Source: an uncultured Pirellulales bacterium (GTDB lineage: Bacteria > Planctomycetota > Phycisphaerae > Sedimentisphaerales > Anaerobacaceae). From it: a stretch of DNA of 64,000 bases. The notes beneath the pieces were generated by a model. It was given only the letters and a program-made list of their open reading frames with translations, was not told where the DNA came from and ran no database searches. Below, in pieces: positions 39,165-63,723 of this stretch (position 1 is its first letter; each line of letters starts with the position of its first letter). A program made the position numbers and the translations under genes. Location: the NCBI GenBank assembly GCA_964612465.1, contig CAZTDF010000001.1, positions 2,660 to 66,659 on the forward strand, read 5' to 3'.

Positions 39165-39320
39165 ATGGCAGTAATAGGGTTGGCTATATTGGGTGTACTT
39201 TTAGGAGCAGCAGGAATGCAGTTTCTTCGTTCAAGTAAGCCGGAACTGGTGGAAAAGGCCGAAGATGGCATAAAGCGATTTTGGAATTCAATGCCTTTTA
39301 CGAAATCGGATGACAAGTAA
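39165..39320 (+). CDS. Small membrane-anchored protein (51 aa), below the ORF-track cut-off
   Basis: ATG 39165 preceded by GAAAGGA. MAVIGLAILGVLLGAAGMQFLRSSKPELVEKAEDGIKRFWNSMPFTKSDDK, stop TAA 39318-39320. Same architecture as the next ORF: an N-terminal Gly-rich TM helix plus a charged helix. Confidence 0.5.
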   Translation: MAVIGLAILGVLLGAAGMQFLRSSKPELVEKAEDGIKRFWNSMPFTKSDDK

Positions 39321-39377
39321 GAAAACAAAAGCCAAATAAAGCAAAACAATTTTGTGTTGACAAGGAAAGGAAATGCC

Positions 39378-39569
39378 ATGCTTAAGAGTTTAGGAATTCT
39401 GATAGGCGGAGTATTCGTCGGTGCTGTAAGTGTAGAAGTTGTTCGCAGGAAGTGTCCGGATGCACTGGACGATCTGTATGTAAAAATCCGTGAAGTAGCC
39501 TCTGAAGTAAAGGAGGCTTTCAAAAATGGTTACGAAAAAGCCGGTCAACCAAAACCGGCTGCCGCTTGA
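39378..39569 (+). CDS. Small membrane-anchored protein (63 aa)
   Basis: ATG 39378 with AAGGAAAGGAAA upstream (the track ORF is open from 39354). MLKSLGILIGGVFVGAVSVEVVRRKCPDALDDLYVKIREVASEVKEAFKNGYEKAGQPKPAAA. Confidence 0.55.
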   Translation: MLKSLGILIGGVFVGAVSVEVVRRKCPDALDDLYVKIREVASEVKEAFKNGYEKAGQPKPAAA

Positions 39570-39683
39570 AGAGCGAGGAATCTATAAAGTTTGAAGAATC
39601 CGGCCTGCAGTTTATTGGCCGTGGTGACTATTGTGGATATTGTTTAAAAGAAAATCTCAGGCTGGAAAAGAAAGGCACCGAGA

Positions 39684-40016
39684 ATGGACAACCATAAATC
39701 AGAGCTTTTGGGAACCGTGGAGACTGTATCTAAATTTGCGGGCACTTTGGCGGGAAAGGTGGTGGTTCGCAGCAGGGAAATCAGCGATTGTGTCAAAAAT
39801 ATGATGACAGAAAAGCTAGAACCCAAACCAAAGCCATCCACCAAGGCAACCGAATCCATAAAGAGCCAGACAAAAAAGAAACTTGCTGAGTTGGAAAAGG
39901 AAAAACCAGCAGCTAAGCAAGACAAGTTGGAAGAAAAACCGGAGAAACTTAAACCGGCGGTTACCAGAGCAAAAAAGACAAGCGTCAAGCCCAAGGGTAA
40001 GATAGACAGGAATTGA
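39684..40016 (+). CDS. Lys-rich hypothetical protein sharing an N-terminal motif with the coiled-coil/HEAT protein
   Basis: MDNHKSELLGTVETVSKFAGTLAGKVVV resembles MDNEKQYLEFVGNASERAGALAGKVAS of ORF 41605. Followed by a low-complexity K/E/P tail. Confidence 0.55.
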   Translation: MDNHKSELLGTVETVSKFAGTLAGKVVVRSREISDCVKNMMTEKLEPKPKPSTKATESIKSQTKKKLAELEKEKPAAKQDKLEEKPEKLKPAVTRAKKTSVKPKGKIDRN

Positions 40017-40111
40017 TTAATAAACCAAGGTTCATCTAAGCTGTTCCTTAAAGACATCATTTTAGGAAAAGAACAATTCGGCCGGTCTCGCCTGAATGGG
40101 CGCATGTAGAT

Positions 40112-41578
40112 ATGACCATATTTGACTATTTAATATTCGCTTTGTATATGGCAGGTGTTTTAACAGTTGGTCTTTATCATTATACTCGTAACAAGAATAT
40201 CGAAGATTATTACGTCGGCAGCCGGTCAATAGGGTCTTCTTATGTTGGGCTTTCAATTGTTGCTACGGATGTCGGAGGGGGCTTTTCCATTGGTTTGGGC
40301 GGCCTTGGTTTTGTGATGGGACTTGCAGGAAGCTGGCTTTTGTTTACCGGTCTGATCGGAGCATGGCTAAGTGCCGTATTTATTATTCCACGAATCAAGA
40401 AAATTGATGCAAAATATAAATTCATGACCTACCCCGATTTCCTTCGGTACAGATATAACGATGAAGTAGCCTTAGTCGCCGCGATAATTTCCGGCATTGC
40501 ATATCTTGGTTTTGCCGGTGTTCAAATGCTCGCCGGTGCCAAGTTGGCTTCCGTGACAATCATCCAGAACAATCCTTTTGGAGTTGAGCCAATAACATTT
40601 GCATTGGTTTTTATGGCGGTTATTACCATAACTTACACGGTTGTCGGCGGCCTTAAGGCGGTCATTTATACCGATGCCGTTCAATGGGTACTGCTGCTTG
40701 GCGGACTGCTCATTACGATCCCTGTAGCGTTGTATAAAATCGGAGGCATGGATGCCCTCAGACAGAAACTGCCGCCGGAATATTTTTCTCTTTCAAACAT
40801 TTCGCCGGCAACATTTATTAATTGGATGCTAACGATTATTCCCGCCTGGCTGATCGGCAATACGATATACCAGCGAATGTATGCTTGCAAAGATGAGTAT
40901 GAGGCCAAACGCGCATGGTATATTGCAGGTTTTCTTGAGTATCCGGTTATTGCATTTGCCGGTGCATTTCTTGGTATGTGTGCCCGTGTTGTCGCTCCTG
41001 GCGCCGAGCCGGAAATGGCAATGCCGATACTTATTCGCGATGTTCTGCCGGCAGGCGTAACTGGGATAGTCATCGTGGCATATTTTTCAGCGATAATGTC
41101 AACAGCGGACAGTTGCCTTATGGCGTCTTCCGGCAACTTCGCGACTGATATTATAGAACGCTATTTTTTTCGCAGAATTTCAACTAAAGCATCGATTCGT
41201 TTGTCGATGTTGATAACTCTTATTATCGGCACTCTTTCGGTTGTTATGGCCGCCCAGTTCACTTCGGTTCTACATGCCGCTCTCTATACATATGCCTTTA
41301 TGGTTTCAGGGCTGTTTGTGCCGACCCTTGGGGCTTATTTCTGGGAGAAGGGCAGTTGCTCCGGTGCTATGGCTGGCATGCTTGCCGGAGGAATAACCAC
41401 AGTTTTGTTGTTAACCAATACCCTTGTTCTTCCGGAAAAACTCGAATCTTTAGGTTTGTATGATGGTTTGTACGGCATAGCCTGTTCCACTGTAGCGTTC
41501 GTCGGCGTGTCATTACTTTTTCCGGATACAACAACTGATTTTGGGGATTTCGCTGTTGCTCAGAGCAACGCAGTATGA
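40112..41578 (+). CDS. Sodium:solute symporter family (SSF) transporter
   Basis: 488 aa and about 13 TM helices. N-terminal SSF-type strings [36 protein letters not shown], plus [17 protein letters not shown]. Confidence 0.8.
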
Positions 41579-41604: not shown

Positions 41605-43728
41605 ATGGATAATGAAAAACAGTATTTAGAGTTTGTTGGGAATGCATCCGAACGTGCAGGTGCCCTTGCCGGCAAGGTGGCAAGTATTAGCAATAAAATC
41701 GCGAGTCGTGCAACCGGAAGTATCTCAGCGGGAAAAGAAATGCTTGGCTTAGCTGACGAAAAGGTCAAACACAAATCTGAAAAGAAGTCGGACAATACCA
41801 AAACTTCTATACTCAAATCCGACCTTGCCGCAGTCCAACGAAAGTTGACTAACATGGAAAAAACACAATCAAAGCTCGAATCACAGATCAAGAAACTGAA
41901 AACAGAGAATCACTCATTAGTATCCCAGATGGATCAAATGCGAAGTGAACTGAGTGAGACGAAATCCCGCGAAAGTGCGGTAAGGGCACGAGCAGCAGCA
42001 CTGGAATCGGAGCTTGATGATATTAGAAGCCAACTCGAAGAAACACAGAGCAAACCTGCAAAGACAACTGCTGTGGGAGTTGGCCGAAGTAAGCGGGTAG
42101 CCGAGTTGGAATCTGAGCTTGCTGCAACTCAGTGTGAATTGGAAGAGACGCGAAAGAAAGCTGAGCAGGCTCAATCTGAGTTTGCATCGCAACTCGAGGC
42201 TATACAGGTGGAAAACAAATCCTTGAGTTCTGATCTGGAAAAAACTAAAAGTAAAGCAAACCAAGATCAGGCTGACCTCAAGTCTCAAATAAGTAACCTT
42301 CAATCGGAAAATAATTCTTTGAAGTCTGAGCTGGAAAACCAGCGAACTGGGGAAAATAAGATGCTGAATTTAGAAGAGGAATTAAAAACACGGGCAGCCC
42401 AGTTAGAAGCTGACCTTGCCGCAACGCAGAGTGAATTGGCTGAAGCACAAAATCAGGCTGAAAAAGATCAAAATGATATTGCATCGCAACTCAAAGATAT
42501 AAAGGTTGAAAAAGAATCCCTGATTTCGGATTTGGAAAAAACACAGAATAAAGTTAATGAGATAACTTATCGAGAAGAACAAGTGAGCAAACAAGCGGCT
42601 AAGTTAGAATCAGAACTTGCCGCGACACAACAGGAACTGGCCGAAACACAGAATCAGGCTGAATATTCCCAAACTGAACTTATAAAACAACTTCAGAACC
42701 TGCAGGCAGAGAATAAATCTTTGATTTCTGAGCTTAACCAGGCTCGCAAAAAGGCTGACGATGCAGGAATACGAGCCGATTTGATTGAGTCAAAGATAGC
42801 TACATTGGAATCTAATGTCAGCGATGCTCACCTTAAGTCAGAAGAAGAATCAGGTATAGACATCACTTTACCACAAACAGATTATCAGGATGAACCTGCT
42901 GTTGTACCGACTGTGGAAGAAATCAAACCTTTAATTGAATCTGATGTTGTTCAGGACGAGCTCATAAATGCAGACATTGAAAATATTGAAGTGCCGGAAC
43001 CGGAGCCGGAACCGATACTTGAGTCTGATACTGAGATAGATGTTGAAAAAATAGAACCTGAGCTGCTGCCGGAGGTTGAGTTAACAGAGCCAGTGAAAGT
43101 GACAATCGAGGATGTGCAGGCATCTGATTTTAAAAATGAGGCGGAAAGAATAATCTTTACAAAAGCTCTTTCTGATTTTGCCAGCGCCGATACAGCAATC
43201 CGTGTGGATGCAGCTAAAACAATCGGCGGCATTTCTCATGAACTGTCAGCCCGGATCATTGTTGCTCATATAGCCGATGAAAAGTCAGCGGCGGTACGTC
43301 AGGAATGTATCAAGGCATTGTTAACACTTGAAATGGCTGAAGGACTAAGTGCTGTTGAAAGTGCTTTGACAGACGAGACTGCTTCTGTACGTTTAGCTGC
43401 TGTGTGGGGGATATATCGCTTGGCTGGGATCAAGAGTCTGCCGAAACTTTTAGCGATGTTATCTGACGGAGACGTAAGTGTTCGGCGAAGAGCTGTTACA
43501 TGTATCGGCTGGTTAGGCGGACAACTCAAGACCATCGGCGACTCCCGACTTCGTCGAGTTATCTCGGCCTTGATTGAGTGTTTGAACGACTCTGCTGAAT
43601 CAATGAGGAAAGCTACCCTTGATGCCTTACAAGCTGTCACCGGTAAAACTATTTCAATAGGTAAGAGTTCACCCGAGTTTCTGATTGACCAATGGCGTAT
43701 TTGGTGGAAAGAGGAGCTTCTAAGCTAA
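41605..43728 (+). CDS. Large coiled-coil protein with an acidic linker and C-terminal HEAT (PBS-lyase type) repeats
   Basis: About 400 aa of heptad-rich sequence with four copies of the motif LE[SA][ED]L[AD][AD][TI][QR].[EQ]L.E[TA][QR]. Acidic E/P/D linker (VPEPEPEPILESDTEIDVEKIEPELLPEVE). HEAT-like repeats (AIRVDAAKTIGGI, AAVRQECIKALLTL, ASVRLAAVWGIYRL, VSVRRRAVTCIGWLG). Confidence 0.75.
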   Translation: MDNEKQYLEFVGNASERAGALAGKVASISNKIASRATGSISAGKEMLGLADEKVKHKSEKKSDNTKTSILKSDLAAVQRKLTNMEKTQSKLESQIKKLKTENHSLVSQMDQMRSELSETKSRESAVRARAAALESELDDIRSQLEETQSKPAKTTAVGVGRSKRVAELESELAATQCELEETRKKAEQAQSEFASQLEAIQVENKSLSSDLEKTKSKANQDQADLKSQISNLQSENNSLKSELENQRTGENKMLNLEEELKTRAAQLEADLAATQSELAEAQNQAEKDQNDIASQLKDIKVEKESLISDLEKTQNKVNEITYREEQVSKQAAKLESELAATQQELAETQNQAEYSQTELIKQLQNLQAENKSLISELNQARKKADDAGIRADLIESKIATLESNVSDAHLKSEEESGIDITLPQTDYQDEPAVVPTVEEIKPLIESDVVQDELINADIENIEVPEPEPEPILESDTEIDVEKIEPELLPEVELTEPVKVTIEDVQASDFKNEAERIIFTKALSDFASADTAIRVDAAKTIGGISHELSARIIVAHIADEKSAAVRQECIKALLTLEMAEGLSAVESALTDETASVRLAAVWGIYRLAGIKSLPKLLAMLSDGDVSVRRRAVTCIGWLGGQLKTIGDSRLRRVISALIECLNDSAESMRKATLDALQAVTGKTISIGKSSPEFLIDQWRIWWKEELLS

Positions 43729-43734: not shown

Positions 43735-44130
43735 ATGAAGCAACTTGAGAAAAGAAAAAAGACACTTGCCTATCAGGTGCTAAATCTGGAGGGTAAAGCA
43801 TCGCAGATAAACCAGCTATGTGTTGAGTTAGTTAAGTCAATAGGAATCTGCGAAGCTTTTAATGAGTTGTTATCCGACTTATTGGGTTATTTACAATTTA
43901 CCAACACACCGGAGTTTGCCTTTGAGACAGAACTGATGAAGGCTCGCAAGGCCATACATTTTCTACGTAGCCAGACAGAAAACATCCAGGCAAAACTTGG
44001 AAATGCTGCTTCCCTGACAGTTGATATAGGTCTTCATCTTGAATGGTTGCGGGCTGTTAATAAACATCTTTTGGCAATTAAATTTCGCCTTGAAAGTGAG
44101 ATAACAATTTTTAACGTTAGAGAATTTTGA
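43735..44130 (+). CDS. Hypothetical helical protein (131 aa)
   Basis: ORF 6 nt after the previous stop and 4 nt before etfB. No recognisable motif. Confidence 0.5.
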   Translation: MKQLEKRKKTLAYQVLNLEGKASQINQLCVELVKSIGICEAFNELLSDLLGYLQFTNTPEFAFETELMKARKAIHFLRSQTENIQAKLGNAASLTVDIGLHLEWLRAVNKHLLAIKFRLESEITIFNVREF

Positions 44131-44134: not shown

Positions 44135-44923
44135 ATGATGGATATAATTGTTTGTATTAAACAGGTTCCCGACACCCTTGAGGTAAATATTAACAGGGAT
44201 ACCAATACACTTATTCGCGAAGGCGTAGATAGTGTCATAAATCCTTTTGATTTATATGCTCTCGAAGAGGGTCTGCGTCTCAAGGAACAATATGGCGGAA
44301 TGGTGACAGTTTTATCTATGGGGCCGCCTCAGGCAGTTGAGACTTTACGGCAGGCTTTGAGCTTAGGAGCGGATAATGCTGTTTTGCTTAGCGATATCGG
44401 TTTTGCGGGTTCCGACACACTGGCTACTTCTTATACATTGGCCAAAGCGGTGAAAAAGATAGGCCGCTTCGATTTGGTTTTTTGCGGCAGACAAGCCGTC
44501 GATGGCGATACCGCACACGTTGGGCCTTCACTGGCGGAAAAATTGGGTGTTGGTCATGTCTGTTGTGTTATGAAGATAAGTGAAGTGGGTGATGGCAATA
44601 TGACTGTGGAGCGTATGACCGAAGAAGGTATTGAACGGATAAAGCTTTCACTTCCGGCACTGATTACGGTTTCCAAAGGGATTAACGAGCCGCGGTTTCC
44701 CTCATTGAAATGGAAAGTAAATGCAGCAAGGTCCGAGATTGAAGTCTGGTTTGCTCAGGATATCGGTGCGGACGAAAACAAAATTGGGTTGAAAGGCTCT
44801 CCCACAAGAGTTGTCAAAATGACTACCTCTCAACATAACAGACAAGGTCAGATTCTGGAAGGTTCGACTGCCGAACAGGTAACGGATTTGGTGTCTAAAC
44901 TCCATCAGGCAGAAATATTGTGA
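44135..44923 (+). CDS. etfB: Electron transfer flavoprotein beta subunit (EtfB/FixA)
   Basis: MMDIIVCIKQVPDT... N-terminus. LVFCGRQAVDGDTAHVGP and GINEPRFPSLK strings typical of EtfB. Confidence 0.85.
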   Translation: MMDIIVCIKQVPDTLEVNINRDTNTLIREGVDSVINPFDLYALEEGLRLKEQYGGMVTVLSMGPPQAVETLRQALSLGADNAVLLSDIGFAGSDTLATSYTLAKAVKKIGRFDLVFCGRQAVDGDTAHVGPSLAEKLGVGHVCCVMKISEVGDGNMTVERMTEEGIERIKLSLPALITVSKGINEPRFPSLKWKVNAARSEIEVWFAQDIGADENKIGLKGSPTRVVKMTTSQHNRQGQILEGSTAEQVTDLVSKLHQAEIL

Positions 44924-44934
44924 AGGAGCACAAG

Positions 44935-46194
44935 ATGGGTATACGTATTATTGAGGAGAACTGTAAGGGCTGCAAACTTTGTGTTGCTGCGTGTCCTTTC
45001 GGTGCCATTACCATTACAGAAAAGCTGGCCCGGATTGATATAGCTAAATGCAATCTTTGCGGAGCATGTGTAGATGCCTGTAAAAAGTTCGCAGCTATTG
45101 AGTTGATTCGCGAAGAGACACCGATTATTGACAAGACTCGATATCGAGGTGTTTGGGTATTTGCCGAGCAGAGAGAAGGTCAAATCGCCAATGTTACGCT
45201 TGAGCTTCTCTGTGAGGGCAGGAAATTAGCCGACAAGTTAGGTGAACCTCTTTGTGCGATTTTGTTAGGAGAGGCGGTTGCAAAGGTTGCTCGCGATTTG
45301 GTCTGTTTCGGTGCCGACAAGGTTTATCTGGCTCAGTCGCCGCAATTGGCGGTGTTTATCGAAGAGGCCTTTACAGAAGTAATAACCGGACTGATTAAAG
45401 AGCATAAGCCAAACATTGTTTTACTTGGCGCGACAGCTATCGGGCGTTCATTAGCTCCGAGAGTAGCCAGCCGACTGGAGACCGGATTAACCGCGGACTG
45501 TACAGGCCTTGAGATAGACACTAAAACTAAAAATCTGTTGCAGACAAGGCCGGCCTTTGGCGGCAATCTGATGGCTACTATAGTTTGCCCGAACCACCGT
45601 CCGCAGATGGCAAGTGTGCGTCCGAAAGTTTTCAAACCTGCCCAGCGAGATCAGATGCGTATCGGGAAAATCATCGGATATAATTATAAAGATTATTGCT
45701 TAACTCAAAGAGCCCAACTGCTTGCGGTGGTTAAAGGGGTTGCCGAAGCAGTTAATATAGCTGAAGCTGATGTTATAGTTGCTGGCGGTCGAGGTCTGGG
45801 ATGTGCCGAAAACTTCAAAATTATTGAACGATTGGCGGATGTACTGGACGGTGCAGCAGGAGCTTCCCGTGCGGTTGTAGATGCAGGATGGGTTCCTTAC
45901 GCTCGTCAGATAGGACAAACGGGCAAGACAGTGCGTCCAAAGCTTTATATTGCCTGTGGTATCAGCGGTGCCATTCAGCACCTTGTTGGGATGCAGTCTT
46001 CGGAAACAATCGTAGCTATTAACAAAGACCCAAAGGCGCTGATTTTCAATGTGGCTGACTACTGTATTGTCGGGGATGCACTTGAAGTAGTTCCGGCTTT
46101 AATCAGAGAAGTAGAAAAGATACAACCCCGGGAGCAAGCCGAGCCTGTTGTAACGGATAGCAAATTGGAACATCAGTTTGCTTTGGGCGGTTAA
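44935..46194 (+). CDS. etfA: Electron transfer flavoprotein alpha subunit (EtfA/FixB) with an N-terminal 2x[4Fe-4S] ferredoxin domain
   Basis: Ferredoxin motifs CKGCKLCVAACP and CNLCGACVDAC. The EtfA core has VVAGGRGLG and LYIACGISGAIQHLVGM. ATG 44935 has AAGGAG 6 nt upstream; the track ORF opens at GTG 44920. Confidence 0.85.
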   Translation: MGIRIIEENCKGCKLCVAACPFGAITITEKLARIDIAKCNLCGACVDACKKFAAIELIREETPIIDKTRYRGVWVFAEQREGQIANVTLELLCEGRKLADKLGEPLCAILLGEAVAKVARDLVCFGADKVYLAQSPQLAVFIEEAFTEVITGLIKEHKPNIVLLGATAIGRSLAPRVASRLETGLTADCTGLEIDTKTKNLLQTRPAFGGNLMATIVCPNHRPQMASVRPKVFKPAQRDQMRIGKIIGYNYKDYCLTQRAQLLAVVKGVAEAVNIAEADVIVAGGRGLGCAENFKIIERLADVLDGAAGASRAVVDAGWVPYARQIGQTGKTVRPKLYIACGISGAIQHLVGMQSSETIVAINKDPKALIFNVADYCIVGDALEVVPALIREVEKIQPREQAEPVVTDSKLEHQFALGG

Positions 46195-46237: not shown

Positions 46238-46852
46238 GTGCTAAAAGAAACCATAACTAAAAATAAGATCGAGTTGCGGAAGGATTGTCTGACAACGACT
46301 GAACTTGCAAAACTCTGCGGTGTTTCTCGTTTTACTATTATCAATTGGGTTAACCGAGGCAAAATTAGAACAATGAAAACTGTCGGAGGCCATTGCAGGA
46401 TTCCGGTATCCGAAGCAATCGCTTTTTATGAGACTTTTCATGAAGAAAAGACTGGCTTTATATCTGAATCATTGTGCCATTGCTGGGAATATCCACAAAA
46501 GGCCAAGTGCAATAAAGAGTGTAAAGACTGCCTGCTATATAAAAGCCGGATTAATTACTGCTTCGTGGTGGTACGCGAATTTGGCAAAGAAGTGGTCCAT
46601 TGTAAAGGTGATTGTTTGAATTGTGATTATTTTGAAGAGTTTTTCAGTTCTTACAGCAAAATCGAGCAGCTAAACGAGACGGAAGATGGCGAAAGTAAAA
46701 AAAGAGCCAAAGACAAGAAAAGCTTTCTGTATAGTGTCGTATACGGTGTTGGGCGCGGCGTCCAGGAAGTAAAGGAAAGAGTCACGGATATTAAAGAGGT
46801 GTTTGGAGGCAGAGGCTCTCGAACCAAACAGATGGAAGATAGCGATGTCTAA
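46238..46852 (+). CDS. HTH (excisionase/MerR type) + 8-Cys domain transcription factor; short paralog of 36906..38372
   Basis: TTTELAKLCGVSRFTIINWVNRGKIRTMKTVGGHCRIPVSEAIAFY, then CHCWEYPQKAKCNKECKDCLLYKSRINYCFVVVREFGKEVVHCKGDCLNCDYFEEFF. Collinear with the N-terminal 150 aa of the NTase-HEPN fusion. Confidence 0.75.
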   Translation: MLKETITKNKIELRKDCLTTTELAKLCGVSRFTIINWVNRGKIRTMKTVGGHCRIPVSEAIAFYETFHEEKTGFISESLCHCWEYPQKAKCNKECKDCLLYKSRINYCFVVVREFGKEVVHCKGDCLNCDYFEEFFSSYSKIEQLNETEDGESKKRAKDKKSFLYSVVYGVGRGVQEVKERVTDIKEVFGGRGSRTKQMEDSDV

Positions 46853-48159: not shown

Positions 48160-48453
48160 ATGGCGACGGCAGAAAAAAACCAACTTAGTCTGAATGATAA
48201 GCTTTTTACTGTTCGCAGAAAGCCGCTCAAAGAATCACATATCAGGCTCGATAAACAGTTGTGTAAAAAGTGTCTCAATAGAATATGCACATATATATGC
48301 CCGGCAGAGGTTTATATTTGGAGTGAATCCAAAAACGAAATTGATATAAGATATGAAAACTGTCTCGAATGCGGCGCCTGTCGCGTAGCGTGTGACAGCA
48401 TAGAATGGGCAAATCCTGTATGGGGAACAGGGATTGCATATAAGAACAGTTAA
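48160..48453 (+). CDS. fixX: FixX/EtfX ferredoxin-like protein
   Basis: 97 aa. CKKCLNRICTYICPAEV and CLECGACRVACD. Starts 1 nt after fixC. Confidence 0.85.
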   Translation: MATAEKNQLSLNDKLFTVRRKPLKESHIRLDKQLCKKCLNRICTYICPAEVYIWSESKNEIDIRYENCLECGACRVACDSIEWANPVWGTGIAYKNS

Positions 48454-49179: not shown

Positions 49180-49269
49180 TAAAACAATGAATCAAGATCA
49201 AAGTCTATCATTCCCGCGAACGCAGGAATCTATTATATTTCAATAAAGTTTAAAGAAAGGAGTTATCGT

Positions 49270-49401
49270 ATGACACTCGGACAATTATTACTTTTAGTGC
49301 TGATCGTTGCAGTATTCTGGATCGCAAGCAAACTGAAAAAACATGACCAAAAAATCGATAAACTGGAAGGCAAGCTTGAAGGCAAGAACGAAAATGAATA
49401 G
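49270..49401 (+). CDS. Small single-TM protein (43 aa), below the ORF-track cut-off
   Basis: Strong RBS AAGGAG 7 nt upstream of ATG 49270. MTLGQLLLLVLIVAVFWIASKLKKHDQKIDKLEGKLEGKNENE, stop TAG 49399-49401. Confidence 0.5.
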   Translation: MTLGQLLLLVLIVAVFWIASKLKKHDQKIDKLEGKLEGKNENE

Positions 49402-50408: not shown

Positions 50409-50423
50409 TAAAAAGGTGTGCAG

Positions 50424-51571: not shown

Positions 51572-51582
51572 ATTAATTGCAA

Positions 51583-56597: not shown

Positions 56598-59500
56598 ATG
56601 ATATGGGCAAAGAATAAGGATAAAAAGAAAAAGTTAAAAACAATAACTGATGACATGACGCCCAGAGAAAAAGAACAGGTGCTGGAATATAAGAAGCGGG
56701 TAATCAGGCGATGGGCCATAGTGGTAGGGCTTCTGGCTCTTGCAACCTTTGGCTTCCTTTTTATGACGCTGCTTGACCATGTGATTAAAGGTACCCCTGA
56801 CGGTGGGCTTGAGATAAACTACAATAAGCTGGATGCAAAGCTCGCCTGGCTCGGTGCTGAGATTCGGGATTTAGACGCTACTATCAGTAGTGCACTTGGT
56901 TTAACCTCAAGCGAGGGGGTCCTCGTAAACAATGTAACATCAGGTTCACCGGCAGATCAGGTGGGTTTGCAGAGAGGCGACGTTATTATTTCCCTTGATG
57001 GAAGCAAGGTAGTCGATACCTTACAGATACAGGACCGGCTTCGGAAACTTAAACCTGGAGATACTGTCAAGCTTGTTTTAGATAAAGTAAATGGCGGCAA
57101 GAAAAATGTTTATGTTACACTTGGCGTCAAACCGGACGATGATGCTGCAACAACTGATACAAAGATTAAAAAAGTAGCAGGAACCACCGATACTGCTGTT
57201 AATCCGGTATTGTCCACGCATTGGGGAATATCGGTGTCGCCGCTGACAGATGATGCAAGGGTTGCATTCAAAATACCCGAGAAAGTTCAAGGCGTTCTTG
57301 TTGTTGCAGTCGTGCGGGGCAGTCTTGCCGATTCGCAGGGCATTAAGGTTGGAGATGTTATTGTAAGTATCAACCAGGTTTCTACGCCTAACCTGCAGGT
57401 TTTTTATCAGGCTCTCAAAGATGTTGAGAGTGTTTTGATGGATGTTTATTCATCTTCTGACGATAAAAGATTCTTTGTAACGTTTCCTGACGAAGGTGAT
57501 TCACCGCCACAAGTTGTGATGATGAGTTTTGATGAAAAAGTGGCCGAAACCCATCGTATTATCATTCCTTCTGACATGGCAGGCTTGAACGGTCAGGTTT
57601 ATTCCCGGTTTGCATCTGCTCCATATTTTATTCTGTATGATTTCAATACAAATCAGCCGACCGTAATCACTAATCCGTATGCATTACAGGTTCGCGGTGC
57701 GGGGATACCCTTAGCGCAAATGCTGATAGAACAAAAAATTGATGCCGTAATAGTAGGCGGAATAGGTCCGCAGGTATTTGATATCTTTTATCTTGCCAAA
57801 GTTAAAATCTATGGACCAGTTACAGGCAGTGTGCGAACCGCGATAACTAATTATCAGTTAGGCAAATTGCCTGAATTAAAGGAAGCTAACCTTGCCGGAT
57901 ACGGCAATTCATCGACAGCCACAATTCCGACAGGCGGCTCACCTAGGACAGAGACGGATGATACCGCTGATGATGAAGAAAGTGATGGTCTGTCCGGTCA
58001 GCCTTCGGTTATTCCACCTAAAGGCAAACCCCTCGAACTTACTGCCCAGGGCGATGCCCGTGCAAGCAGGCCGGAAACCTGCGTCTGCCCCAGATGTGGC
58101 ACAGAAGTAACTCATCCGGCAAGTACTGCCTGTGCTGATATGGTATGTCCCATTTGCGGTTCTCAGCTTATGACAGCATCGCCTGGAACTGATTCAATTA
58201 CCGGCACGGATATGACAACCCAGCTTCCAGCGACACAGATACCAACCCAGTTGAGACCTATTTCCTTAGCGGCAGGCAGTACAGTAGCACCGACAAGCCC
58301 ACCCAGCAGAATAGCAGCGATACCAACAGCCGCCAATCTATGGGCAATAAGCAATCAGCCCTCAACTACACCGCCTACAACAACACCAGTACAACAAACG
58401 GCGGGTTCTTCAACAACGGTTTGTATATGTCCTCTTGATGGCACAACAGTGACCCATCCGGTTGGTATTCCATGTTCTGCTCTTCAGTGTCCAGTTTGCG
58501 GCGGCAGAATGGTAAGTGCCAGCAGTGCAATCATTGATGGCAGCCAGATATCCAAAACTGCCGGGGTGGTAGTTGGCGGCAAACCCGATGATGTCCCACC
58601 GGTTCAGCAGGTATTTTACATACTTCCTGTTGGCGGCAAACCGGATGACATACCGCCGTCAATGGGTGGCTCGGCACAAACCGTTTCACTTGTTACGATT
58701 GGCGGCAAACCGGACGATGTACCGCCTGTTCAGCAGACATTCTACTTACTGCCAGTAGCCGGCGGACCTCCTGAGGGTATGGGCAGCGCTCCGACTGATA
58801 CCGGCAGTGCTCCGGCTGATGTGGGAGGCTCATCGCAGAGTGCTCGTTCGACAACATGTATATGTCCTGTGGATGGCACAACGGTAACCCATCCGATAGG
58901 TGTTCCCTGTTCGCAGCTTAGCTGTCCTATATGTGGTTCTCGTATGGTTAATGCCGCCCCCGGCGGTGATACTGCCGGCGGTGCAATTCAAACAGGCGGC
59001 AAACCCGATGATGTTCCACCGGTTCAGCAGGCATTTTACTTACTTCCTGTCGGCGGCAAACCGGATGACGTACCGCCTGTCCAGCAGGCCTTTTTCTTAG
59101 TGCCGGTATCGAGCCAGCCTGATGGTGTGCCGCCTTTAGGCCAGAGCACACAGTCGGTAACTCAAGCTCAAAGGACGTCGCTTGTTACGATAGCCGGCGG
59201 ACCTCCGGAGGGTATGGGTATGGGAGGGGCAGCTGATACAGGCACTGCCGTAGATGGGCCGGCACAGGGTGGTGGTCAGTCTGGCTCCGGTGCGGCCCAG
59301 ACTGGTCGCTCAGATTTATGTGTGTGCCCAATGTGTGGCGTAACCGTAACGCATCCAATATCTGTTCCGTGTTCCTCACTTACATGTCCCGTCTGCGGCT
59401 CTCGATTGGTTAACCAAACCCCTGGAGGCACAAGCGGCAATACAGCCGGCAGCAGTTTAGTACCGACAGCGGCAATTACAGTTGCTGCGACATCGAACAT

Positions 59501-59963
59501 AGTTCATGTAGCGGGGAGTTCTAAAAAATTGGTTATCCCATCCACAGGCAGAACTCTTAAATCTAATATTGCGCCGTTACTCGACGATGCTCGTTATTTC
59601 TTAATGTTCGGATTAGGAACATATGAAGCGGTACCCAATCCATATTACAGGGACAAAAGGGCAAGTGGAGATGAAATCGGTCAGTTCATAGTGGCTGAAG
59701 GCGGTTCGATTGTTATTTGCAATAACGTAAGTGCCACAGCACTCAAAGCACTCAAGGACCTGAAAGTCAAGGTATACACCGGCTTTGTGGGCACAGTTCA
59801 GCAGGCTCTTGACATATACAATGATGGCAGGATCAAGGATTCATCGACAGGGAGTGTTCTTGATGATGAAGAAGAACATGGCGGCGGTGGGCCGCCTTCA
59901 TCAAAAACCAAGTCTTCTAAAGAAAAAGACAAAGACAAAGATAATGACACGGAGGTATTTTAG
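56598..59963 (+). CDS. 1121-aa membrane-anchored multidomain protein: TM - PDZ - PDZ - NifX/NifB-type (Nitro_FeMo-Co) domain - four Cys/His knuckle modules interleaved with GGKPDDVPP repeats - second NifX-type domain - acidic/basic tail
   Basis: TM helix WAIVVGLLALATFGFLFMTLL. PDZ: GVLVNNVTSGSPADQVGLQRGDVIISLD and GVLVVAVVRGSLADSQGIKVGDVIVSIN. NifX-like 1: FASAPYFILYDFNTNQPTVITNPY...GAGIPLAQMLIEQKIDAVIVGGIGPQVFDIFYLAKVKIYGPVTGSVRTAITNY. NifX-like 2: LDDARYFLMFGLGTYEAVPNPYY...GDEIGQFIVAEGGSIVICNNVSATALKALKDLKVKVYTGFVGTVQQALDIY. Confidence 0.8.
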   Translation: MIWAKNKDKKKKLKTITDDMTPREKEQVLEYKKRVIRRWAIVVGLLALATFGFLFMTLLDHVIKGTPDGGLEINYNKLDAKLAWLGAEIRDLDATISSALGLTSSEGVLVNNVTSGSPADQVGLQRGDVIISLDGSKVVDTLQIQDRLRKLKPGDTVKLVLDKVNGGKKNVYVTLGVKPDDDAATTDTKIKKVAGTTDTAVNPVLSTHWGISVSPLTDDARVAFKIPEKVQGVLVVAVVRGSLADSQGIKVGDVIVSINQVSTPNLQVFYQALKDVESVLMDVYSSSDDKRFFVTFPDEGDSPPQVVMMSFDEKVAETHRIIIPSDMAGLNGQVYSRFASAPYFILYDFNTNQPTVITNPYALQVRGAGIPLAQMLIEQKIDAVIVGGIGPQVFDIFYLAKVKIYGPVTGSVRTAITNYQLGKLPELKEANLAGYGNSSTATIPTGGSPRTETDDTADDEESDGLSGQPSVIPPKGKPLELTAQGDARASRPETCVCPRCGTEVTHPASTACADMVCPICGSQLMTASPGTDSITGTDMTTQLPATQIPTQLRPISLAAGSTVAPTSPPSRIAAIPTAANLWAISNQPSTTPPTTTPVQQTAGSSTTVCICPLDGTTVTHPVGIPCSALQCPVCGGRMVSASSAIIDGSQISKTAGVVVGGKPDDVPPVQQVFYILPVGGKPDDIPPSMGGSAQTVSLVTIGGKPDDVPPVQQTFYLLPVAGGPPEGMGSAPTDTGSAPADVGGSSQSARSTTCICPVDGTTVTHPIGVPCSQLSCPICGSRMVNAAPGGDTAGGAIQTGGKPDDVPPVQQAFYLLPVGGKPDDVPPVQQAFFLVPVSSQPDGVPPLGQSTQSVTQAQRTSLVTIAGGPPEGMGMGGAADTGTAVDGPAQGGGQSGSGAAQTGRSDLCVCPMCGVTVTHPISVPCSSLTCPVCGSRLVNQTPGGTSGNTAGSSLVPTAAITVAATSNIVHVAGSSKKLVIPSTGRTLKSNIAPLLDDARYFLMFGLGTYEAVPNPYYRDKRASGDEIGQFIVAEGGSIVICNNVSATALKALKDLKVKVYTGFVGTVQQALDIYNDGRIKDSSTGSVLDDEEEHGGGGPPSSKTKSSKEKDKDKDNDTEVF
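58575..59109 (+). repeat. In-frame tandem/interspersed coding repeats encoding GGKPDD[VI]PP[VS]QQ.F[YF][LI][LV]PV (six copies)
   Basis: The DNA unit ggcggcaaacc(c/g)ga(t/c)ga(t/c)gt(a/c/t)cc(a/g)cc(g/t)gt(t/c)cagcag recurs at about 58575, 58632, 58701, 58995, 59052 and, degenerate, at 59110. Read directly. Confidence 0.8.
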
Positions 59964-60871
59964 TGACGGAAAGTAAGCTCGAAAAACTTATAAAAACAAA
60001 GAAACACTCAAAAGCTAATGTGATTATGATCATAATAGTTGTCGGATTTATTATTCTCATAGTGTGCCAATCGGCTTTTATGGGTTTCACAATGAAGGAA
60101 CAAACCAGAACGACTACTGCCCCTCAGGATGGTTCTATCCGAAGCAGCAACATTGCACTGACGGCTTCGAATATACAGCTTGTTGCGTGCACGGATGACG
60201 ACCTTACAGATGCGGTTTCTGCAGTAAAGAGAGCAGTTGTGAATATAGACGTAGCCCCGGCTGATGTTGGTTCTGCGAATAGAAGGGGTGAGCCTGCTTT
60301 GAGTTTTGATATGCCCTCGACAGCAGCCCTGCAAACAAACGAAGAAACTCTTGGTTCAGGTGTTATCGTTGATGCACGTGGGTATATTCTTACCTGCTAC
60401 CACTTAATAAAAGATTGCCCGAACGTTAATGTGAGTGTTTTTAGTTCTGTGCGTCAGATATACAAAGCCCAGGTTGTTGATGTCGATATTACAAATGACC
60501 TTGCAATCCTGAAGATAGAATCGGACAGGCCTTTGCCGGCAGTAAAACTGGCAAACTCCGATCTGGTCAAGATAACCGATGCGATTCTTGCTATCGGTTC
60601 GCCGTTTGGTTTCGAGCACACAGTAACCGCTGGGATAGTCAGCGATAACAAGCGAAGTATCGTCATTGGTAATACTGTTTACAAAGATATGTTACAGACG
60701 GATGCGGCAATAAACCGCGGTAGTGCCGGCGGTGCTTTGATAAATGGTGCCAGCGAAATCATTGGTATTAATACCGCCATCGCGTCTCCATCGGGATATT
60801 TTTCAGGCGTCAGTTTTGCCATACCAATAAACAAGGCCAGGCCGCTGTTGCTGAAGGCAATTGATGGCTGA
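59963..60871 (+). CDS. Trypsin-like (HtrA-fold) pseudoprotease: His and Asp retained, nucleophile Ser replaced by Ala (MamO-like logic)
   Basis: TM anchor VIMIIIVVGFIILIVCQSAF. YILTCYHLI (His) and TNDLAILKI (Asp). DAAINRGSAGGALIN aligns column for column with DAAINRGNSGGPLIN of the active paralog at 50424. GTG start overlaps the upstream stop by 1 nt. Confidence 0.8.
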   Translation: MTESKLEKLIKTKKHSKANVIMIIIVVGFIILIVCQSAFMGFTMKEQTRTTTAPQDGSIRSSNIALTASNIQLVACTDDDLTDAVSAVKRAVVNIDVAPADVGSANRRGEPALSFDMPSTAALQTNEETLGSGVIVDARGYILTCYHLIKDCPNVNVSVFSSVRQIYKAQVVDVDITNDLAILKIESDRPLPAVKLANSDLVKITDAILAIGSPFGFEHTVTAGIVSDNKRSIVIGNTVYKDMLQTDAAINRGSAGGALINGASEIIGINTAIASPSGYFSGVSFAIPINKARPLLLKAIDG

Positions 60872-60882: not shown

Positions 60883-62070
60883 ATGAAAAAGTTTATACAA
60901 TGGATAGCAGCGAAAGCCATTAAAGATCACCAGAGCGTTAATGATCTGAAGGTCAGGTCACGTTATGGAGCACTTGAAGGCTGGACAAGTATTGTTATCA
61001 ATTTGCTGCTGTTTATTGTTAAGATAGTCCTTGGTCTTTCGATAAGAAGCGTATCTTTGATTGCTGACGCTGTTCATACATTGGCCGATTCCGGCACTTC
61101 AGCGGTAGTTATAATCGGATTTAAAATAGCACGAAAGCCGTCGGATAAAGAACACCCGTTTGGCCATGGGAGAATGGAATCAGTAGCGGCCCTGGTCGTT
61201 TCGGTGTTACTATTTATGGCGGGTTTGGAACTATTGGAAAAGTCGATTCATGCCATTATCAAACCGCAAAGCTCTACAGCTCCGACCGGTGTGATTTTAG
61301 TAATCATCGCAACTATTGTGATAAAGGAACTGATGGCGAGGTTTTCCTATCAGCTTGGCGAGATTATTGATTCGCAGGCTCTTAAGGCAGACGCCCTTCA
61401 TCATCGAAGTGATGTAATCGCTACCGCTCTGGTAGTCGTTGCACTTATCGCAACGCGATTCGGTTATAATAATATTGATGGTATAATGGGCGTTGGTGTT
61501 TCTCTGATTATTTTTTACTCAGCCTTCTTGATTGCCAAAGAAGCGGTCAATCCTTTGCTGGGCGAGGCGCCTTCAAAAGAAAAGATTAAGGAAATAGAAA
61601 AACTGGCAATGACTCACGAAGGAGTTTTGGGCGTTCACGACATAATCTTTCACAAATACGGCCAAACGAGTGTGATCTCTTTGCATATAGAGGTATCGGA
61701 TAAGGATTCTGCTTTCAAGCTTCATGAGCTTGCAGAGCAAGTGGAAGATACAATCACTCAGAAGATTCCTGGAATGGCGGTTGTCCATGTCGATCCGTTA
61801 AACAAGGACCACCCTCAGTATGAGCAAATCACCATGGCTATAAAAGATATTATCTCTGAAGACATAAGAGTAAGTGCTTTTCATGATTTAAGAATCGTCG
61901 GTTGTCGTGCGAATAGATGTAACGTGGTTTTCGACATTGTTTTGGAGCAAGACGCTGATGAGCAGGAAACTCACGACATGATCCATTCTATAGCCGAGAA
62001 GTTCAAAACGAAGTTCCCTGAAATGAAGACAGTTATTAAAGCTGAACCGAAATACGCGTATAATATTTAG
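60883..62070 (+). CDS. CDF transporter with a canonical HxxxD/HxxxD site and an extended (duplicated) C-terminal domain
   Basis: TM2 LIADAVHTLADSG. Loop KPSDKEHPFGHGRMES. TM5 LKADALHHRSDVIAT. 395 aa with two successive CTD-like segments (GVHDIIFHKYGQTSVISLHIEV and AFHDLRIVGCRANRCNVVFDIVL). Confidence 0.85.
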   Translation: MKKFIQWIAAKAIKDHQSVNDLKVRSRYGALEGWTSIVINLLLFIVKIVLGLSIRSVSLIADAVHTLADSGTSAVVIIGFKIARKPSDKEHPFGHGRMESVAALVVSVLLFMAGLELLEKSIHAIIKPQSSTAPTGVILVIIATIVIKELMARFSYQLGEIIDSQALKADALHHRSDVIATALVVVALIATRFGYNNIDGIMGVGVSLIIFYSAFLIAKEAVNPLLGEAPSKEKIKEIEKLAMTHEGVLGVHDIIFHKYGQTSVISLHIEVSDKDSAFKLHELAEQVEDTITQKIPGMAVVHVDPLNKDHPQYEQITMAIKDIISEDIRVSAFHDLRIVGCRANRCNVVFDIVLEQDADEQETHDMIHSIAEKFKTKFPEMKTVIKAEPKYAYNI

Positions 62071-62080
62071 CACTATTATC

Positions 62081-62425
62081 ATGAATCTAATAAAGAAGAA
62101 ACTGGCCGATTTCTTAAACGAGATGAGTAACAAGGGTATAGATAAGATGGATCCGAAGAGTTCTTGCGCTAAATCTTTAAAGGATTTAGATAGAGAGACG
62201 CTCCTAAAAGAGGATATCGAGCGAATTTGCGATGAGATGCGAGTCTTGGAGGCAGGAAAAATCTTGAGATTATCCAACAAACTCATGTGGTCAGGCACAG
62301 CAAATAAGGATGAATTTAGAAAAGAAATAAAATCGATGGCTTCTAAAGTATTGAAACGTGTGGAAAAGAAAGGCGGAAAACTAAATCTTCCACGACAATG
62401 TCGAGATTTGCTGATGAATTTGTAA
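62081..62425 (+). CDS. Hypothetical soluble helical protein (114 aa)
   Basis: ORF 10 nt after the CDF gene. Its 3' end overlaps the EcsC-like gene by 28 nt. No recognisable motif. Confidence 0.45.
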   Translation: MNLIKKKLADFLNEMSNKGIDKMDPKSSCAKSLKDLDRETLLKEDIERICDEMRVLEAGKILRLSNKLMWSGTANKDEFRKEIKSMASKVLKRVEKKGGKLNLPRQCRDLLMNL

Positions 62426-63279
62426 GAGGATTACCAGTGAAGCTAAGTGAATATGAGATCAAAAGCTTGCGAGAAATAAAAAAATGGGAGAAGGACAAAC
62501 ATAAGGGCTTTCATAAGAAAGTCCTCGATGTTGTTTCCAGACCAGTGGATTATGTCCTCGGTAAGATTGGGCAAAGAAAACTCAAAATTTTTGAAGATGC
62601 TGTTGAGAAAACCGTCAATAATCTGCTAACTACTTCAACCTCTACAGTTGATGCCGAAGATCTGATAAAAAGGGCTCATGCTCATGGTGTGATGATAAAA
62701 GACCTGTCGGAACTGAAAGATTGTGATTTGGGATTGTTAGACAATTGTAACCGAAAACATATAAAATTCCACGAGAAGGCGAGTGCTATACAAGGTGCGG
62801 TAGGTGGTCTTGGGGGCATAGTGGTAGCAACAGTGGATCTAACAGCACTTTTGGTCCAGGATTTTCATATGATTCAGGAAATCGCATTTTGCTATGGTTT
62901 CGATCCGAACGATATTATCGAGAAAGAGATAATACTAAGAATAATCGAAATCGGTGTTGGCGGCTCAGAGATAAAATTCAAGGCATTACAGGAAATAGAC
63001 GCCTTAAAAAAAATAAAGACCAAAGTAAGTAAGAAAAAAACAACAAAAAAAGGTGCTTCGGTTCTGGGTTCAAAAGCCTTGGAGGAATACATCGAACAAC
63101 TGACCACAGCTTTGATCGTTCGCCTGGTGCCGCGTGCCCTGCCTGTAGTATCAATGGCGGTAAGTGCTCATTCGAATCACGAAATAATAGAGCATTCGGG
63201 AAAAGCGGCTTTTATGGTTTATCGAAGGCGATTCATTGAAAGGAAAAAGAAAACAATAGAACGACGATATAAGAAATAG
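62398..63279 (+). CDS. EcsC-family protein
   Basis: 293 aa. The central GAVGGLGGIVVATVDLTALLVQDFHMIQEIAFCYGFDPND and the C-terminal LVPRALPVVSMAVSAHSNHEIIEHSGKAAFMVYRRRF are typical of EcsC-family proteins as I recall them. Confidence 0.65.
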   Translation: MSRFADEFVRGLPVKLSEYEIKSLREIKKWEKDKHKGFHKKVLDVVSRPVDYVLGKIGQRKLKIFEDAVEKTVNNLLTTSTSTVDAEDLIKRAHAHGVMIKDLSELKDCDLGLLDNCNRKHIKFHEKASAIQGAVGGLGGIVVATVDLTALLVQDFHMIQEIAFCYGFDPNDIIEKEIILRIIEIGVGGSEIKFKALQEIDALKKIKTKVSKKKTTKKGASVLGSKALEEYIEQLTTALIVRLVPRALPVVSMAVSAHSNHEIIEHSGKAAFMVYRRRFIERKKKTIERRYKK

Positions 63280-63303
63280 ACCAAATAGAAAGGGGAATTA
63301 GCA

Positions 63304-63723
63304 ATGGATGTAACTGATTATTACTGTCCGACAACCGTAACAAGTACGCTTGGTTACTCCATGGGTCGGGCCGTCGGAGCTGCGAGGATAATAACAGTCG
63401 ATGCCATCAATCCTGTTAAAGCCGGTGCCGCCGTAGCTATTTTGTGGGGAAGTATAGCTGCTCTGGTAAATGTAAAAAAATATAAGCAGGGCAAAATAAC
63501 AAAACGGGATGCTGTTGTTGATACAGGAGGCGAAGCGGTAGGCCTGGGACTGGCTGCCGGCCTTGGCTTATTGGCAAGTAATGCAGTAAGAGCTTCGGTC
63601 CTGGTTGCCTCTACCACTTCGCTTGTTCCGTTTACCGTAGGTGTCGCAGTAACATCAGGTATGAAGGTGATGTGGAATTGCAGCACAAAGAAACATCTCA
63701 AATGTCAACCAAAACCATCGTAA
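63304..63723 (+). CDS. Small 2-3 TM protein with a MamC/Mms13-like inter-helix loop
   Basis: AGAAVAILWGSIAALVNVKKYKQGKITKRDAVVDTGGEAVGLGLAAGLGLLASNAV compared with the remembered MamC [55 protein letters not shown]. Shared pattern K..IT...A..DTG.E.VG.GLA. Confidence 0.5.
   Translation: MDVTDYYCPTTVTSTLGYSMGRAVGAARIITVDAINPVKAGAAVAILWGSIAALVNVKKYKQGKITKRDAVVDTGGEAVGLGLAAGLGLLASNAVRASVLVASTTSLVPFTVGVAVTSGMKVMWNCSTKKHLKCQPKPS

Follow-up and report, generated by a model that had tools for sequence, protein, structure and literature searches.

Magnetosome gene clusters (MGCs) of the canonical kind encode magnetochromes, the heme-binding domains carried by MamP, MamE, MamT and MamX and, in Desulfovibrio magneticus, by MamP* and Mad1. 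Magnetochrome hemes have been described as the sole redox proteins associated with the magnetosome (PMC3971196). That MGCs can also encode non-heme Fe-S redox proteins is known from Mad6, the NapH-like protein of deep-branching MGCs (PMC4287615). That greigite clusters of Desulfobacterota may keep magnetochromes is only hinted at by the name 'MamT*' (PMC9145555). Putative greigite-type MGCs have previously been reported from Planctomycetota metagenomes (PMC5955933, PMC7449369, PMC7602337). Here, a cluster is described from a 64,000-nucleotide stretch (the window) of contig CAZTDF010000001.1, assigned to an uncultured Pirellulales bacterium, in which Mam-like genes follow directly upon an electron transfer flavoprotein (Etf)/Fix module (block at 39162-63723, + strand). 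The window-type MGC family is without any magnetochrome; FixC, FixX and a Zn-peptidase are its invariant components and EtfBA a frequent one, and they are co-inherited with it.

The closest described clusters are the putative Fe3S4-type MGCs of Planctomycetota (Planctomycetes bacterium SM23_25; metagenome-assembled genomes (MAGs) of Uzun et al., 2020 and Lin et al., 2018, 2020), which share with the window-type cluster the phylum-level source and the hallmark genes mamI, A, Q, B, M, E, P-like and K, and which are likewise known from metagenomes only. The available literature on Planctomycetota MGCs makes no mention of etf/fix genes or of magnetochrome absence. Nothing was found in the searchable literature linking magnetosomes with electron transfer flavoprotein or Fix genes, or treating magnetochrome together with Planctomycetes or Latescibacteria, and the Uzun 2020 supplement contains no flavoprotein or ferredoxin entries. 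The MGC as such is an already known kind, and the coupling of etf/fix genes to a heme-free MGC family is apparently unreported. The mineral is presumed to be greigite because most Planctomycetota MGCs have been so placed in the literature and because of the sulfur and Fe-S flavour of the genes; the rhodanese and NifX-like domains of the cluster are only suggestive of an Fe3S4-type MGC.

A close described relative of the Etf/Fix module is the EtfABCX complex of Thermotoga maritima (7KOE), which couples the oxidation of NADH to the simultaneous reduction of menaquinone and ferredoxin (PMC10734219). The window encodes the same four subunits with the same domain content, all on the + strand. These are EtfB (FixA-like, PF01012; 44135-44923), EtfA (FixB-like, with ETF and ETF_alpha domains; 44920-46194), FixC, an ETF:quinone oxidoreductase-like flavoprotein (Pfam ETFQO_UQ-bd; real start at about 46845, extending to 48158), and the ferredoxin-like protein FixX (PF05187, Fer4_ETF_QO; 48160-48453). 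The window set differs from T. maritima EtfABCX and from the FixABCX of diazotrophs in that EtfA has an extra N-terminal 2x[4Fe-4S] ferredoxin domain with two CxxCxxCxxxC motifs, etfA is separated from fixC by the gene of a regulator, and the context is a biomineralisation cluster rather than nif genes or central catabolism. Furthermore, two lineages of the window family have FixCX without adjacent EtfAB. The closest solved relatives of the ferredoxin-fused EtfA (Fd-EtfA) and of EtfB are CarE/CarD of the caffeyl-CoA reductase-Etf complex (6FAH) and LctC/LctB of the lactate dehydrogenase-Etf complex (7QH2), both from Acetobacterium woodii. The ferredoxin-domain fusion is common to CarE, LctC and the window EtfA, whereas the A. 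woodii Etfs have a CoA-reductase or lactate dehydrogenase as partner and the partner genes in the window are FixC and FixX.

Matches in the Protein Data Bank (PDB) point to the bifurcating type. The best match of EtfA is CarE (6FAH_A, E 4e-127, full length including the ferredoxin domain), followed by 5OL2, 7QH2, 7KOE and 4KPU; the top five matches of EtfB are all bifurcating Etfs (E 5e-66 to 5e-62), with non-bifurcating ones at 7e-30 or weaker. For both subunits the five are CarDE, Bcd-Etf (5OL2), LctBC, T. maritima EtfAB and the Acidaminococcus fermentans Etf (4KPU), and non-bifurcating Etfs are 30 to 70 orders of magnitude worse. Against the T. maritima complex, E values were 1.3e-65 for EtfB (7KOE_A), 1.2e-89 for EtfA (7KOE_B) and 4.5e-84 for FixC (7KOE_C; residues 4-425, full length), and PF26311 (ETF-QO_FixC_C) was detected in FixC homologues. 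The EtfB segment GRQAVDGDTAHVGP corresponds in the alignment to GKQTTDGDTAQVGP in LctB and to GKQAVDGDTGQVGP in T. maritima EtfB; the type G-x-Q-x-x-DGDT-x-QVGP is presumably the EtfB signature of the second (bifurcating) FAD/NADH site. NCBIfam yielded no equivalog-level assignment for any Etf/Fix or Mam protein, every score, including that of the FixC subfamily, lying below cut-off. The Pfam and PDB matches bear out the preliminary description of this DNA, which had named a complete EtfB-EtfA(Fd-fused)-FixC-FixX set, and the genes are predicted to encode a complete EtfAB-FixCX set of the electron-bifurcating (group 2) type.

The linkage of this module with mam genes was examined in a tblastn synteny survey of 8 genome loci and 27 metagenome loci. 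In five of the six testable genome loci and in 15 metagenome loci, the genes immediately 5' of the mam genes include FixC, FixX and/or the peptidase, and the complete EtfB-to-peptidase set is present at 14 loci in all. The order in the relatives is EtfB-FdEtfA-(HTH)-FixC-FixX-peptidase, followed by the genes for PDZ protein, protease, cation diffusion facilitator (CDF) transporter, rhodanese, MamI, MamA and MamQ. The check proposed in the preliminary description, whether etf/fix genes flank MGCs in related genomes, thus found FixCX in every related MGC with enough upstream DNA and EtfBA in many. FixC-FixX-Zn-peptidase stands directly 5' of mamE/B/I/A/Q-like genes in four diverged lineages, with MamQ identity down to 38%, and EtfBA adjoins FixCX in two of the four. 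In L040/L048 (MamQ 38%) the order is HEAT-EtfB-FdEtfA, a reverse-strand transposase, HTH-FixC-FixX-peptidase and the mam genes; L049/L050 (MamQ 39-41%) have FixC-FixX-peptidase and L051 (MamQ 48%) HTH-FixC-FixX-peptidase before the mam genes, with no EtfBA nearby in either case.

The flanks are unlike in each lineage: an ABC permease array in the window, DtxR/FeoAB upstream in L040, OprB/Rrf2 in L050 and a two-component system in L051. Since FixC-FixX-peptidase is kept across the four lineages in unrelated flanks, the fix/etf genes are part of the MGC family. In L029 the peptidase and PDZ genes are held apart by a 5-kb insertion (1134-5461) with MerB-like, radical SAM, P-type ATPase and GNAT genes. 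L005, the only genome locus to depart from the pattern, has a large part of the same insertion 5' of its PDZ gene (10-5357), and its etf/fix module may lie beyond the stretch fetched. The radical-SAM protein of the ~5-kb insertion in L029 and L005 ends in a poly-Cys tail. One further locus (L036) was not counted as an MGC, having a 34%-identical trypsin-like match only and no other window gene. The genome and metagenome scans returned the window-type MGC family only; a MamQ search started from a diverged locus gave 84 matches, all of the same family, of which the most distant (P0326, 37%) is on a 6-kb contig without the upstream region.

FixC distances track those of Tryp1 and CDF1 (r 0.92-0.93, Mantel p 0.001, 22 loci), a result that would hold for any vertically inherited neighbour. 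It would therefore also be obtained if the etf/fix genes served general energy metabolism, e.g., quinone-linked oxidation, and were linked to the mam genes by vertical inheritance only. Such hitch-hiking would fit the similarity of Fd-EtfA to ordinary Etfs (61-68% identity, the 66% relative standing beside an acyl-CoA dehydrogenase), and the sampled MGCs may all come from related organisms. However, the etf/fix genes lie inside a low-GC island with MGC-specific genes on both sides, their GC content at third codon positions (GC3) being 0.39-0.45 against 0.37-0.51 in the mam genes and 0.51-0.74 in the flank. The linkage is still seen where MamQ identity has fallen to 38%, in unrelated genomic surroundings, and insertions have left the module in place. 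The neighbourhood encodes neither an acyl-CoA dehydrogenase nor any other Etf client. Moreover, EtfBA stands beside mamK on another contig: in L043 a MamK gene (411 bits, cut-off 400) is directly followed by EtfB-FdEtfA, beside a coiled-coil/HEAT gene. Hitch-hiking by descent is accordingly considered very unlikely. A specialised EtfA clade confined to MGCs found no support at the pairwise level, where identities fall smoothly from 97% to 61%.

The 8 genome loci with relatives are nearly all from Pirellulales/Planctomycetota MAGs or from one single-cell genome, and the exact MamQ-like protein of the window also occurs on metagenome contigs of the JGI. A near-syntenic cluster including etf/fix (L009, JAIVYN010000051.1) is found in a MAG labelled Candidatus Aegiribacteria, a placement that reflects either mis-binning or horizontal transfer.

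The magnetochrome signature was sought in six frames. The 64 kb contain 8 CXXCH motifs, none in a plausible gene; one lies within the block, in a 35-codon off-frame stretch. No magnetochrome-type motif occurs in any Mam-type gene of 51 related loci (~0.6 Mb), in which in-gene CxxCH motifs are only single, in a CDF N-terminus and in a Cys-knuckle module. Motifs in L049/L050 and at position 20806 of the window were dismissed as antisense to real genes. The 10 kb past the window end, as represented by L047, contain no CXXCH, and L040 and L048 overlap such that ~37 kb of one contig was scanned, from FeoAB to housekeeping genes. The absence of CXXCH from the block's genes, which had been stated from the listed translations, therefore stands for the whole window and extends to the downstream genes, and the diverged relatives likewise have no magnetochrome. 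Chance alone would give 0.03 CXXCH in the block's 7,687 residues, so the absence is statistically unremarkable and is notable solely by contrast with canonical MGCs. The window proteins have in common with MamP, MamE, MamT and MamX the PDZ and trypsin domains, the lumen-directed membrane anchoring and the presumed need to manage the iron redox state (PMC3971196, PMC3840617), whereas the defining CXXCH is missing from the window family.

Predicted topology separates the two groups of proteins. EtfB, Fd-EtfA and FixX have no hydrophobic segment and that of FixC, its only one, belongs to the FAD-binding fold; lacking both a signal and a membrane segment, EtfB, Fd-EtfA and FixX are predicted to be cytoplasmic. 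The PDZ proteins, both proteases, the rhodanese and a 1121-aa MamP*/FmpB-like protein (56598-59963, + strand) share a single span near the N-terminus, flanked by positive charge on its N-terminal side, and on this N-in arrangement their bulk is predicted to face the lumen or periplasm. These predictions bear on the proposal that FixABCX takes the place of the magnetochromes directly, controlling the Fe(II)/Fe(III) ratio in the growing crystal by flavin/Fe-S electron transfer. CXXCH is absent across the MGC family, FixCX is invariant and the Etf is of the bifurcating type, all of which would suit it. However, the solved relatives of the Etf/Fix proteins are on the cytoplasmic side, whereas magnetochromes and the PDZ, protease and MamP*-like proteins are lumenal, no transmembrane electron carrier is evident in the window, and a Cys-rich lumenal candidate exists in the MamP*-like protein. 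Since magnetochromes act in the lumen and Etf/Fix in the cytoplasm, the module would not be a like-for-like substitute, and direct replacement is judged unlikely. Of the earlier suggestion that a flavin/Fe-S redox supply could take over from c-type heme, the heme-free cluster with its conserved module has held up, and replacement in the direct sense is made unlikely by topology; for the lumen, the Cys-knuckle protein, which had been overlooked, is a more direct candidate than Etf/Fix.

FmpB/MamP* of D. magneticus RS-1 consists of two N-terminal magnetochromes followed by a PDZ and a NifX/NifB domain. The 1121-aa protein shares with it the PDZ and NifX-like (PF02579) domains and differs in having no magnetochrome pair; instead it carries a second PDZ, a second NifX-like domain and Cys modules, in the order transmembrane segment, PDZ, PDZ, NifX-like, four Cys-knuckle modules, NifX-like. 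It is related to FmpB/MamP* in architecture and is not a member of that family as defined. The NifX/NifB domain has been described as binding redox-active Fe-S clusters (PMC4287615). All but one of the protein's 23 Cys fall in four repeats between the two NifX-like domains, with the module consensus C-x-C-P-x-[CD]-G-x3-T-H-P-x5-C-x4-C-P-x-C-G. Each module has two CPxC(G) knuckles, a further invariant Cys pair and a His. The first knuckle reads CP-x-D-G in modules 2 and 3 of the window protein; across lineages, module 2 always has Asp and module 3 Cys or Asp. Every lineage keeps 2-5 Cys modules with the same invariant Cys and His. A search of 1.8 billion representatives, run with the PDZ-PDZ-NifX part as query, gave about 17 more 50%-identity clusters that have this architecture at 29-35% identity, and paired CXXCH occurs in none of the top 149 relatives. 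An AlphaFold (AF2) model of one Cys module reached a predicted local distance difference test score (pLDDT) of 75, and the modules are the preferred candidate for a lumenal metal or redox site. In L048 (5549-8600), of the most diverged lineage, the MamP*-like gene is seemingly reduced to a 163-aa NifX-like open reading frame (ORF), after ~2.5 kb with a reverse-strand ORF only, and may be decayed.

In diazotrophs, the classical role of FixABCX is to provide an Fe-S enzyme system with ferredoxin or flavodoxin. This background favours a reading in which the window's FixABCX mainly supplies low-potential ferredoxin for sulfur or Fe-S chemistry, for example for reductive sulfide release from persulfide or thiosulfate handled by the rhodanese, or for the assembly of Fe-S units with which the NifX-like domains would be charged, as precursors of greigite. 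FixCX is accompanied by rhodanese and NifX-like domains in each of the four lineages, and the redox-active Fe-S cluster binding described for the NifX/NifB domain would be in keeping with such a supply. By prediction, however, the rhodanese and NifX-like domains lie in the lumen, while ferredoxin is cytoplasmic; the cluster encodes no ferredoxin-dependent sulfur enzyme, and the greigite assignment is itself a presumption. Ferredoxin supply as the main function is regarded as rather unlikely.

The best explanation, which is held to be probable by a modest measure, is that a conserved, MGC-encoded EtfABCX and a lumenal MamP*-like protein belong together to a heme-free MGC family. By analogy with the solved complexes, EtfABCX on the cytoplasmic face would couple NADH oxidation to the reduction of menaquinone and low-potential ferredoxin, or run in reverse. 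In this way the organelle would have a dedicated means of setting the redox poise of the magnetosome membrane's quinone pool, and ferredoxin electrons could also be provided to, or drawn from, iron and sulfur chemistry. Within the lumen, iron and sulfur would more probably be handled by the MamP*-like Cys/NifX-like protein together with the rhodanese and the proteases.

Several observations weigh against this explanation. No quinol-to-lumen electron carrier was identified in the window. The Foldseek neighbours of the Cys-module model are mostly zinc ribbon, rubredoxin, desulfoferrodoxin and rubrerythrin folds and are not significant (best E 0.18), and zinc and iron are indistinguishable from the model as the metal of the modules. 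All lineages sampled may belong to one phylum, so that the synteny could partly reflect shared descent. EtfBA is apart from FixCX in two lineages and insertions split the module elsewhere, and it is therefore not an obligate single operon. Fd-EtfA is 66% identical to an ordinary Etf linked to acyl-CoA dehydrogenase in a spore-former-type genome. With regard to the mineral, Fe3O4-type MGCs have also been reported in Planctomycetota (Lin et al., 2020, PMC7602337), and the MGC family is known here from sequences alone (metagenomes, MAGs and one single-cell genome).

A bolder version of the same explanation is a fully heme-free redox chain, in which EtfABCX at the cytoplasmic face would exchange electrons with ferredoxin and with the menaquinone of the magnetosome membrane, while the lumenal rubredoxin-like Cys modules, NifX-like domains and rhodanese would take on the iron (and sulfur) redox and nucleation role that magnetochromes have in magnetite producers; it is put forward tentatively, as rather unlikely. 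Neither the window nor its close relatives have a gene like that for Mad6, and Etf/Fix is unrelated to NapH. At the end of one diverged MGC (L049, 19904-20753) stands a gene for a NosR/NapH-like membrane protein (FMN_bind and Fer4_5), a possible transmembrane electron conduit comparable to Mad6.

The Mam-like genes themselves follow the Zn-peptidase on the + strand. The first encodes a membrane-anchored protein with two PDZ domains and no heme motif (49413-50408), like the PDZ-only, heme-free MamE-Cter/FmpA. It is followed by a membrane-anchored trypsin-like protease with a MamE-like protease domain (50418-51359), with His, Asp and Ser, in HtrA-type motifs (TNAHV, NDIA, GNSGGP), each unchanged in 7 relatives. 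Next are a 68-aa membrane protein (51365-51571), a MamB/MamM-like CDF transporter (51577-52455) and a membrane-anchored rhodanese, a sulfurtransferase predicted to face the lumen (52452-52934). The 65-aa MamI-like protein (52971-53168; PF26391 in the L001 gene call) scores 69.9 bits against an NCBIfam cut-off of 80, and is followed by a MamA-like TPR protein (53172-53834) and a MamQ-like LemA protein (53846-54616). Two MamB-like CDF transporters come next (54763-55653 and 55693-56595). Both begin with a Cys motif, CxxCxWC (MAIVCKQCNWCVKH at 54763-54810 and MAVVCKRCYWCAKH at 55693-55740), which reads CK[QR]C[HNY]WC among the relatives examined and may be an extra cytoplasmic metal site. Beyond the MamP*-like gene lie a second membrane-anchored trypsin-like protease, MamE/O-like (59963-60871), a 395-aa FieF/MamM-like CDF transporter (60883-62070), a 114-aa protein followed by an EcsC-family protein (62081-63279), and a MamC-like membrane protein (63304-63723; PF26373 in gene calls, NCBIfam MamC E 1.5e-7).

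The best NCBIfam models of these proteins are MamB, MamI, MamA, MamQ, MamE and MamC, as expected for genes that had been called Mam-like, and all matches are below the curated cut-offs, which were tuned on cultured magnetotactic bacteria. The proteins appear to be divergent members of these families and not close copies. The cluster is not confined to the stretch up to 63723 given in the preliminary description; in L047, whose anchor PDZ protein is ~96% identical, it runs on for no less than 10 kb. After the MamC-like gene, L047 has 2xPDZ, Metallophos, HEAT, an Rrf2 fragment, a PDZ-PDZ-H+-PPase fusion, a transposase and a MamK-family actin; MamK is thus outside the window, and its truncated gene in L047 scores 339 bits (NCBIfam cut-off 400). 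The fusion of PDZ-PDZ with an H+-translocating pyrophosphatase (~960 aa) is kept downstream in three lineages (L047 14552-17440, L048 12460-15351, L051 18305-20753), and could energise or acidify the compartment.

By predicted homology, core mam homologues are clustered in the window, as the gene content of an MGC demands. The sub-threshold NCBIfam matches would nevertheless also be compatible with a cluster that builds or services some other membrane-bounded iron or iron-sulfur compartment, for storage or detoxification. The unusual accessory genes (PDZ-H+-PPase fusion, Metallophos, rhodanese) could be cited to the same effect, and those parts of the literature on Planctomycetota MGCs that were available document no magnetotactic planctomycete. 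On the other side, the hallmark genes (MamI, A, Q, B/M, E, P-like, C-like, K) are all present together and in typical order, and published phylogenies put Planctomycetota clusters within the Mam families (PMC5955933, PMC7449369, PMC7602337). A function apart from magnetosomes is accordingly given a decidedly low probability.

The block comprises ~30 genes, all plausible ones on the + strand in a single co-directional run, and the survey of genes and junctions agrees with the tight or overlapping junctions first described. Overlaps occur at 44920 (GTGA, 4 nt), 46845 (8 nt), 52452 (ATGA), 59963 (1 nt) and 62398 (28 nt). An apparent gap of 233 nt at 49179/49413 is occupied by a conserved 43-codon ORF (49270-49401, + strand) with a strong AAAGGAG ribosome-binding site, which encodes a single-span membrane protein and is called as a 38-39-aa gene in L038, L049 and L051. 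The largest true gaps are therefore 146, 114, 95 and 90 nt, in accordance with the ~90-150 nt given before. Co-transcription as one 24.5-kb unit is nonetheless doubtful, because relatives tolerate a reverse-strand transposase within the module and a 5-kb insertion after it. Promoter and terminator scans of 38-57 kb gave counts no higher than the shuffled expectation and no + strand terminator in the gaps, and are uninformative on operon structure.

Some genes around the Etf/Fix module are also kept in relatives. The block opens with three small co-directional ORFs of 52, 71 and 110 aa (39162-40016, + strand); the 110-aa protein is kept in relatives, and its N-terminus resembles that of the coiled-coil/HEAT protein. 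A sodium:solute symporter (SSF; 40112-41578, + strand) was found by tblastn in the closest relatives only and is a variable part of the cluster. The 707-aa protein that follows (41605-43728, + strand), a coiled coil with C-terminal HEAT repeats, is like the coiled-coil/HEAT scaffold proteins of deep-branching MGCs, and its gene is kept upstream of etfB in relatives. A 131-aa protein with no known domain (43735-44130, + strand) ends 4 nt 5' of etfB. Between etfA and fixC lies the gene for an HTH_17/excisionase-type DNA-binding protein with a Cys-rich domain (46238-46852, + strand), kept beside fixC in relatives and a candidate Fe-S or redox-sensing regulator. The membrane Zn-metallopeptidase (48487-49179, + strand; PF04298, HExxH motif) always comes directly after fixX in the window-type MGC family. 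In the alignment, a short GC-rich hairpin, ATTCCCGCGAACGCAGGAAT (49210-49229, + strand), separates the peptidase gene from the 43-aa ORF; some relatives have it whereas from others it is cleanly missing, and it may be a small insertion or mobile element or an attenuator-like element.

The block is the 5' portion of an MGC within a low-GC island beside transposases. The window is in two parts, the first 33.7 kb having a GC content of ~53% and a GC3 of 0.51-0.74, and the remainder ~44% and 0.36-0.51. At the island border stand a DDE_Tnp_1 transposase (33980-35176, + strand) and an rve/DDE transposase (35275-36354, - strand), both at the drop in GC, and a protein in which HTH_17 and a Cys-rich domain are fused to nucleotidyltransferase and HEPN domains (36906-38372, - strand). 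The N-terminal 180 aa of the last are a paralog of the regulator between etfA and fixC (BLASTP 50% identity over 179 aa, E 6e-63). Eight Cys are conserved between the two paralogs, and no Pfam or NCBIfam model matches their Cys-rich domain. The high-GC part contains eleven tandem co-directional MacB_PCD/FtsX ABC permease paralogs of ~805-843 aa (3501-31989; GC of the copies 0.51-0.62). With the array and its neighbours (28-3412, 32001-33680) occur two ABC ATPases (2621, 23680), an HlyD-type adaptor, an outer-membrane efflux protein and a histidine kinase. Neither Rfam nor tRNA scanning of the window gave a match.

Current models of iron redox control in magnetosome formation rest on magnetochromes, and a widespread and diverse MGC family has none. 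The coupling of EtfABCX with a Cys-knuckle MamP*-like protein offers a concrete and testable alternative mechanism for the poorly understood greigite-type clusters. Furthermore, fixC, fixX, the PF04298 peptidase and the Cys-knuckle MamP*-like gene provide new markers for finding such clusters in metagenomes, and name parts that heterologous reconstruction of this cluster type would probably need. If true, the fully heme-free chain would mean that redox control in magnetosome formation has been solved a second time, independently, and could point to an evolutionary connection of Fe-S mineral organelles with the nif/fix-type machinery for Fe-S cofactors.

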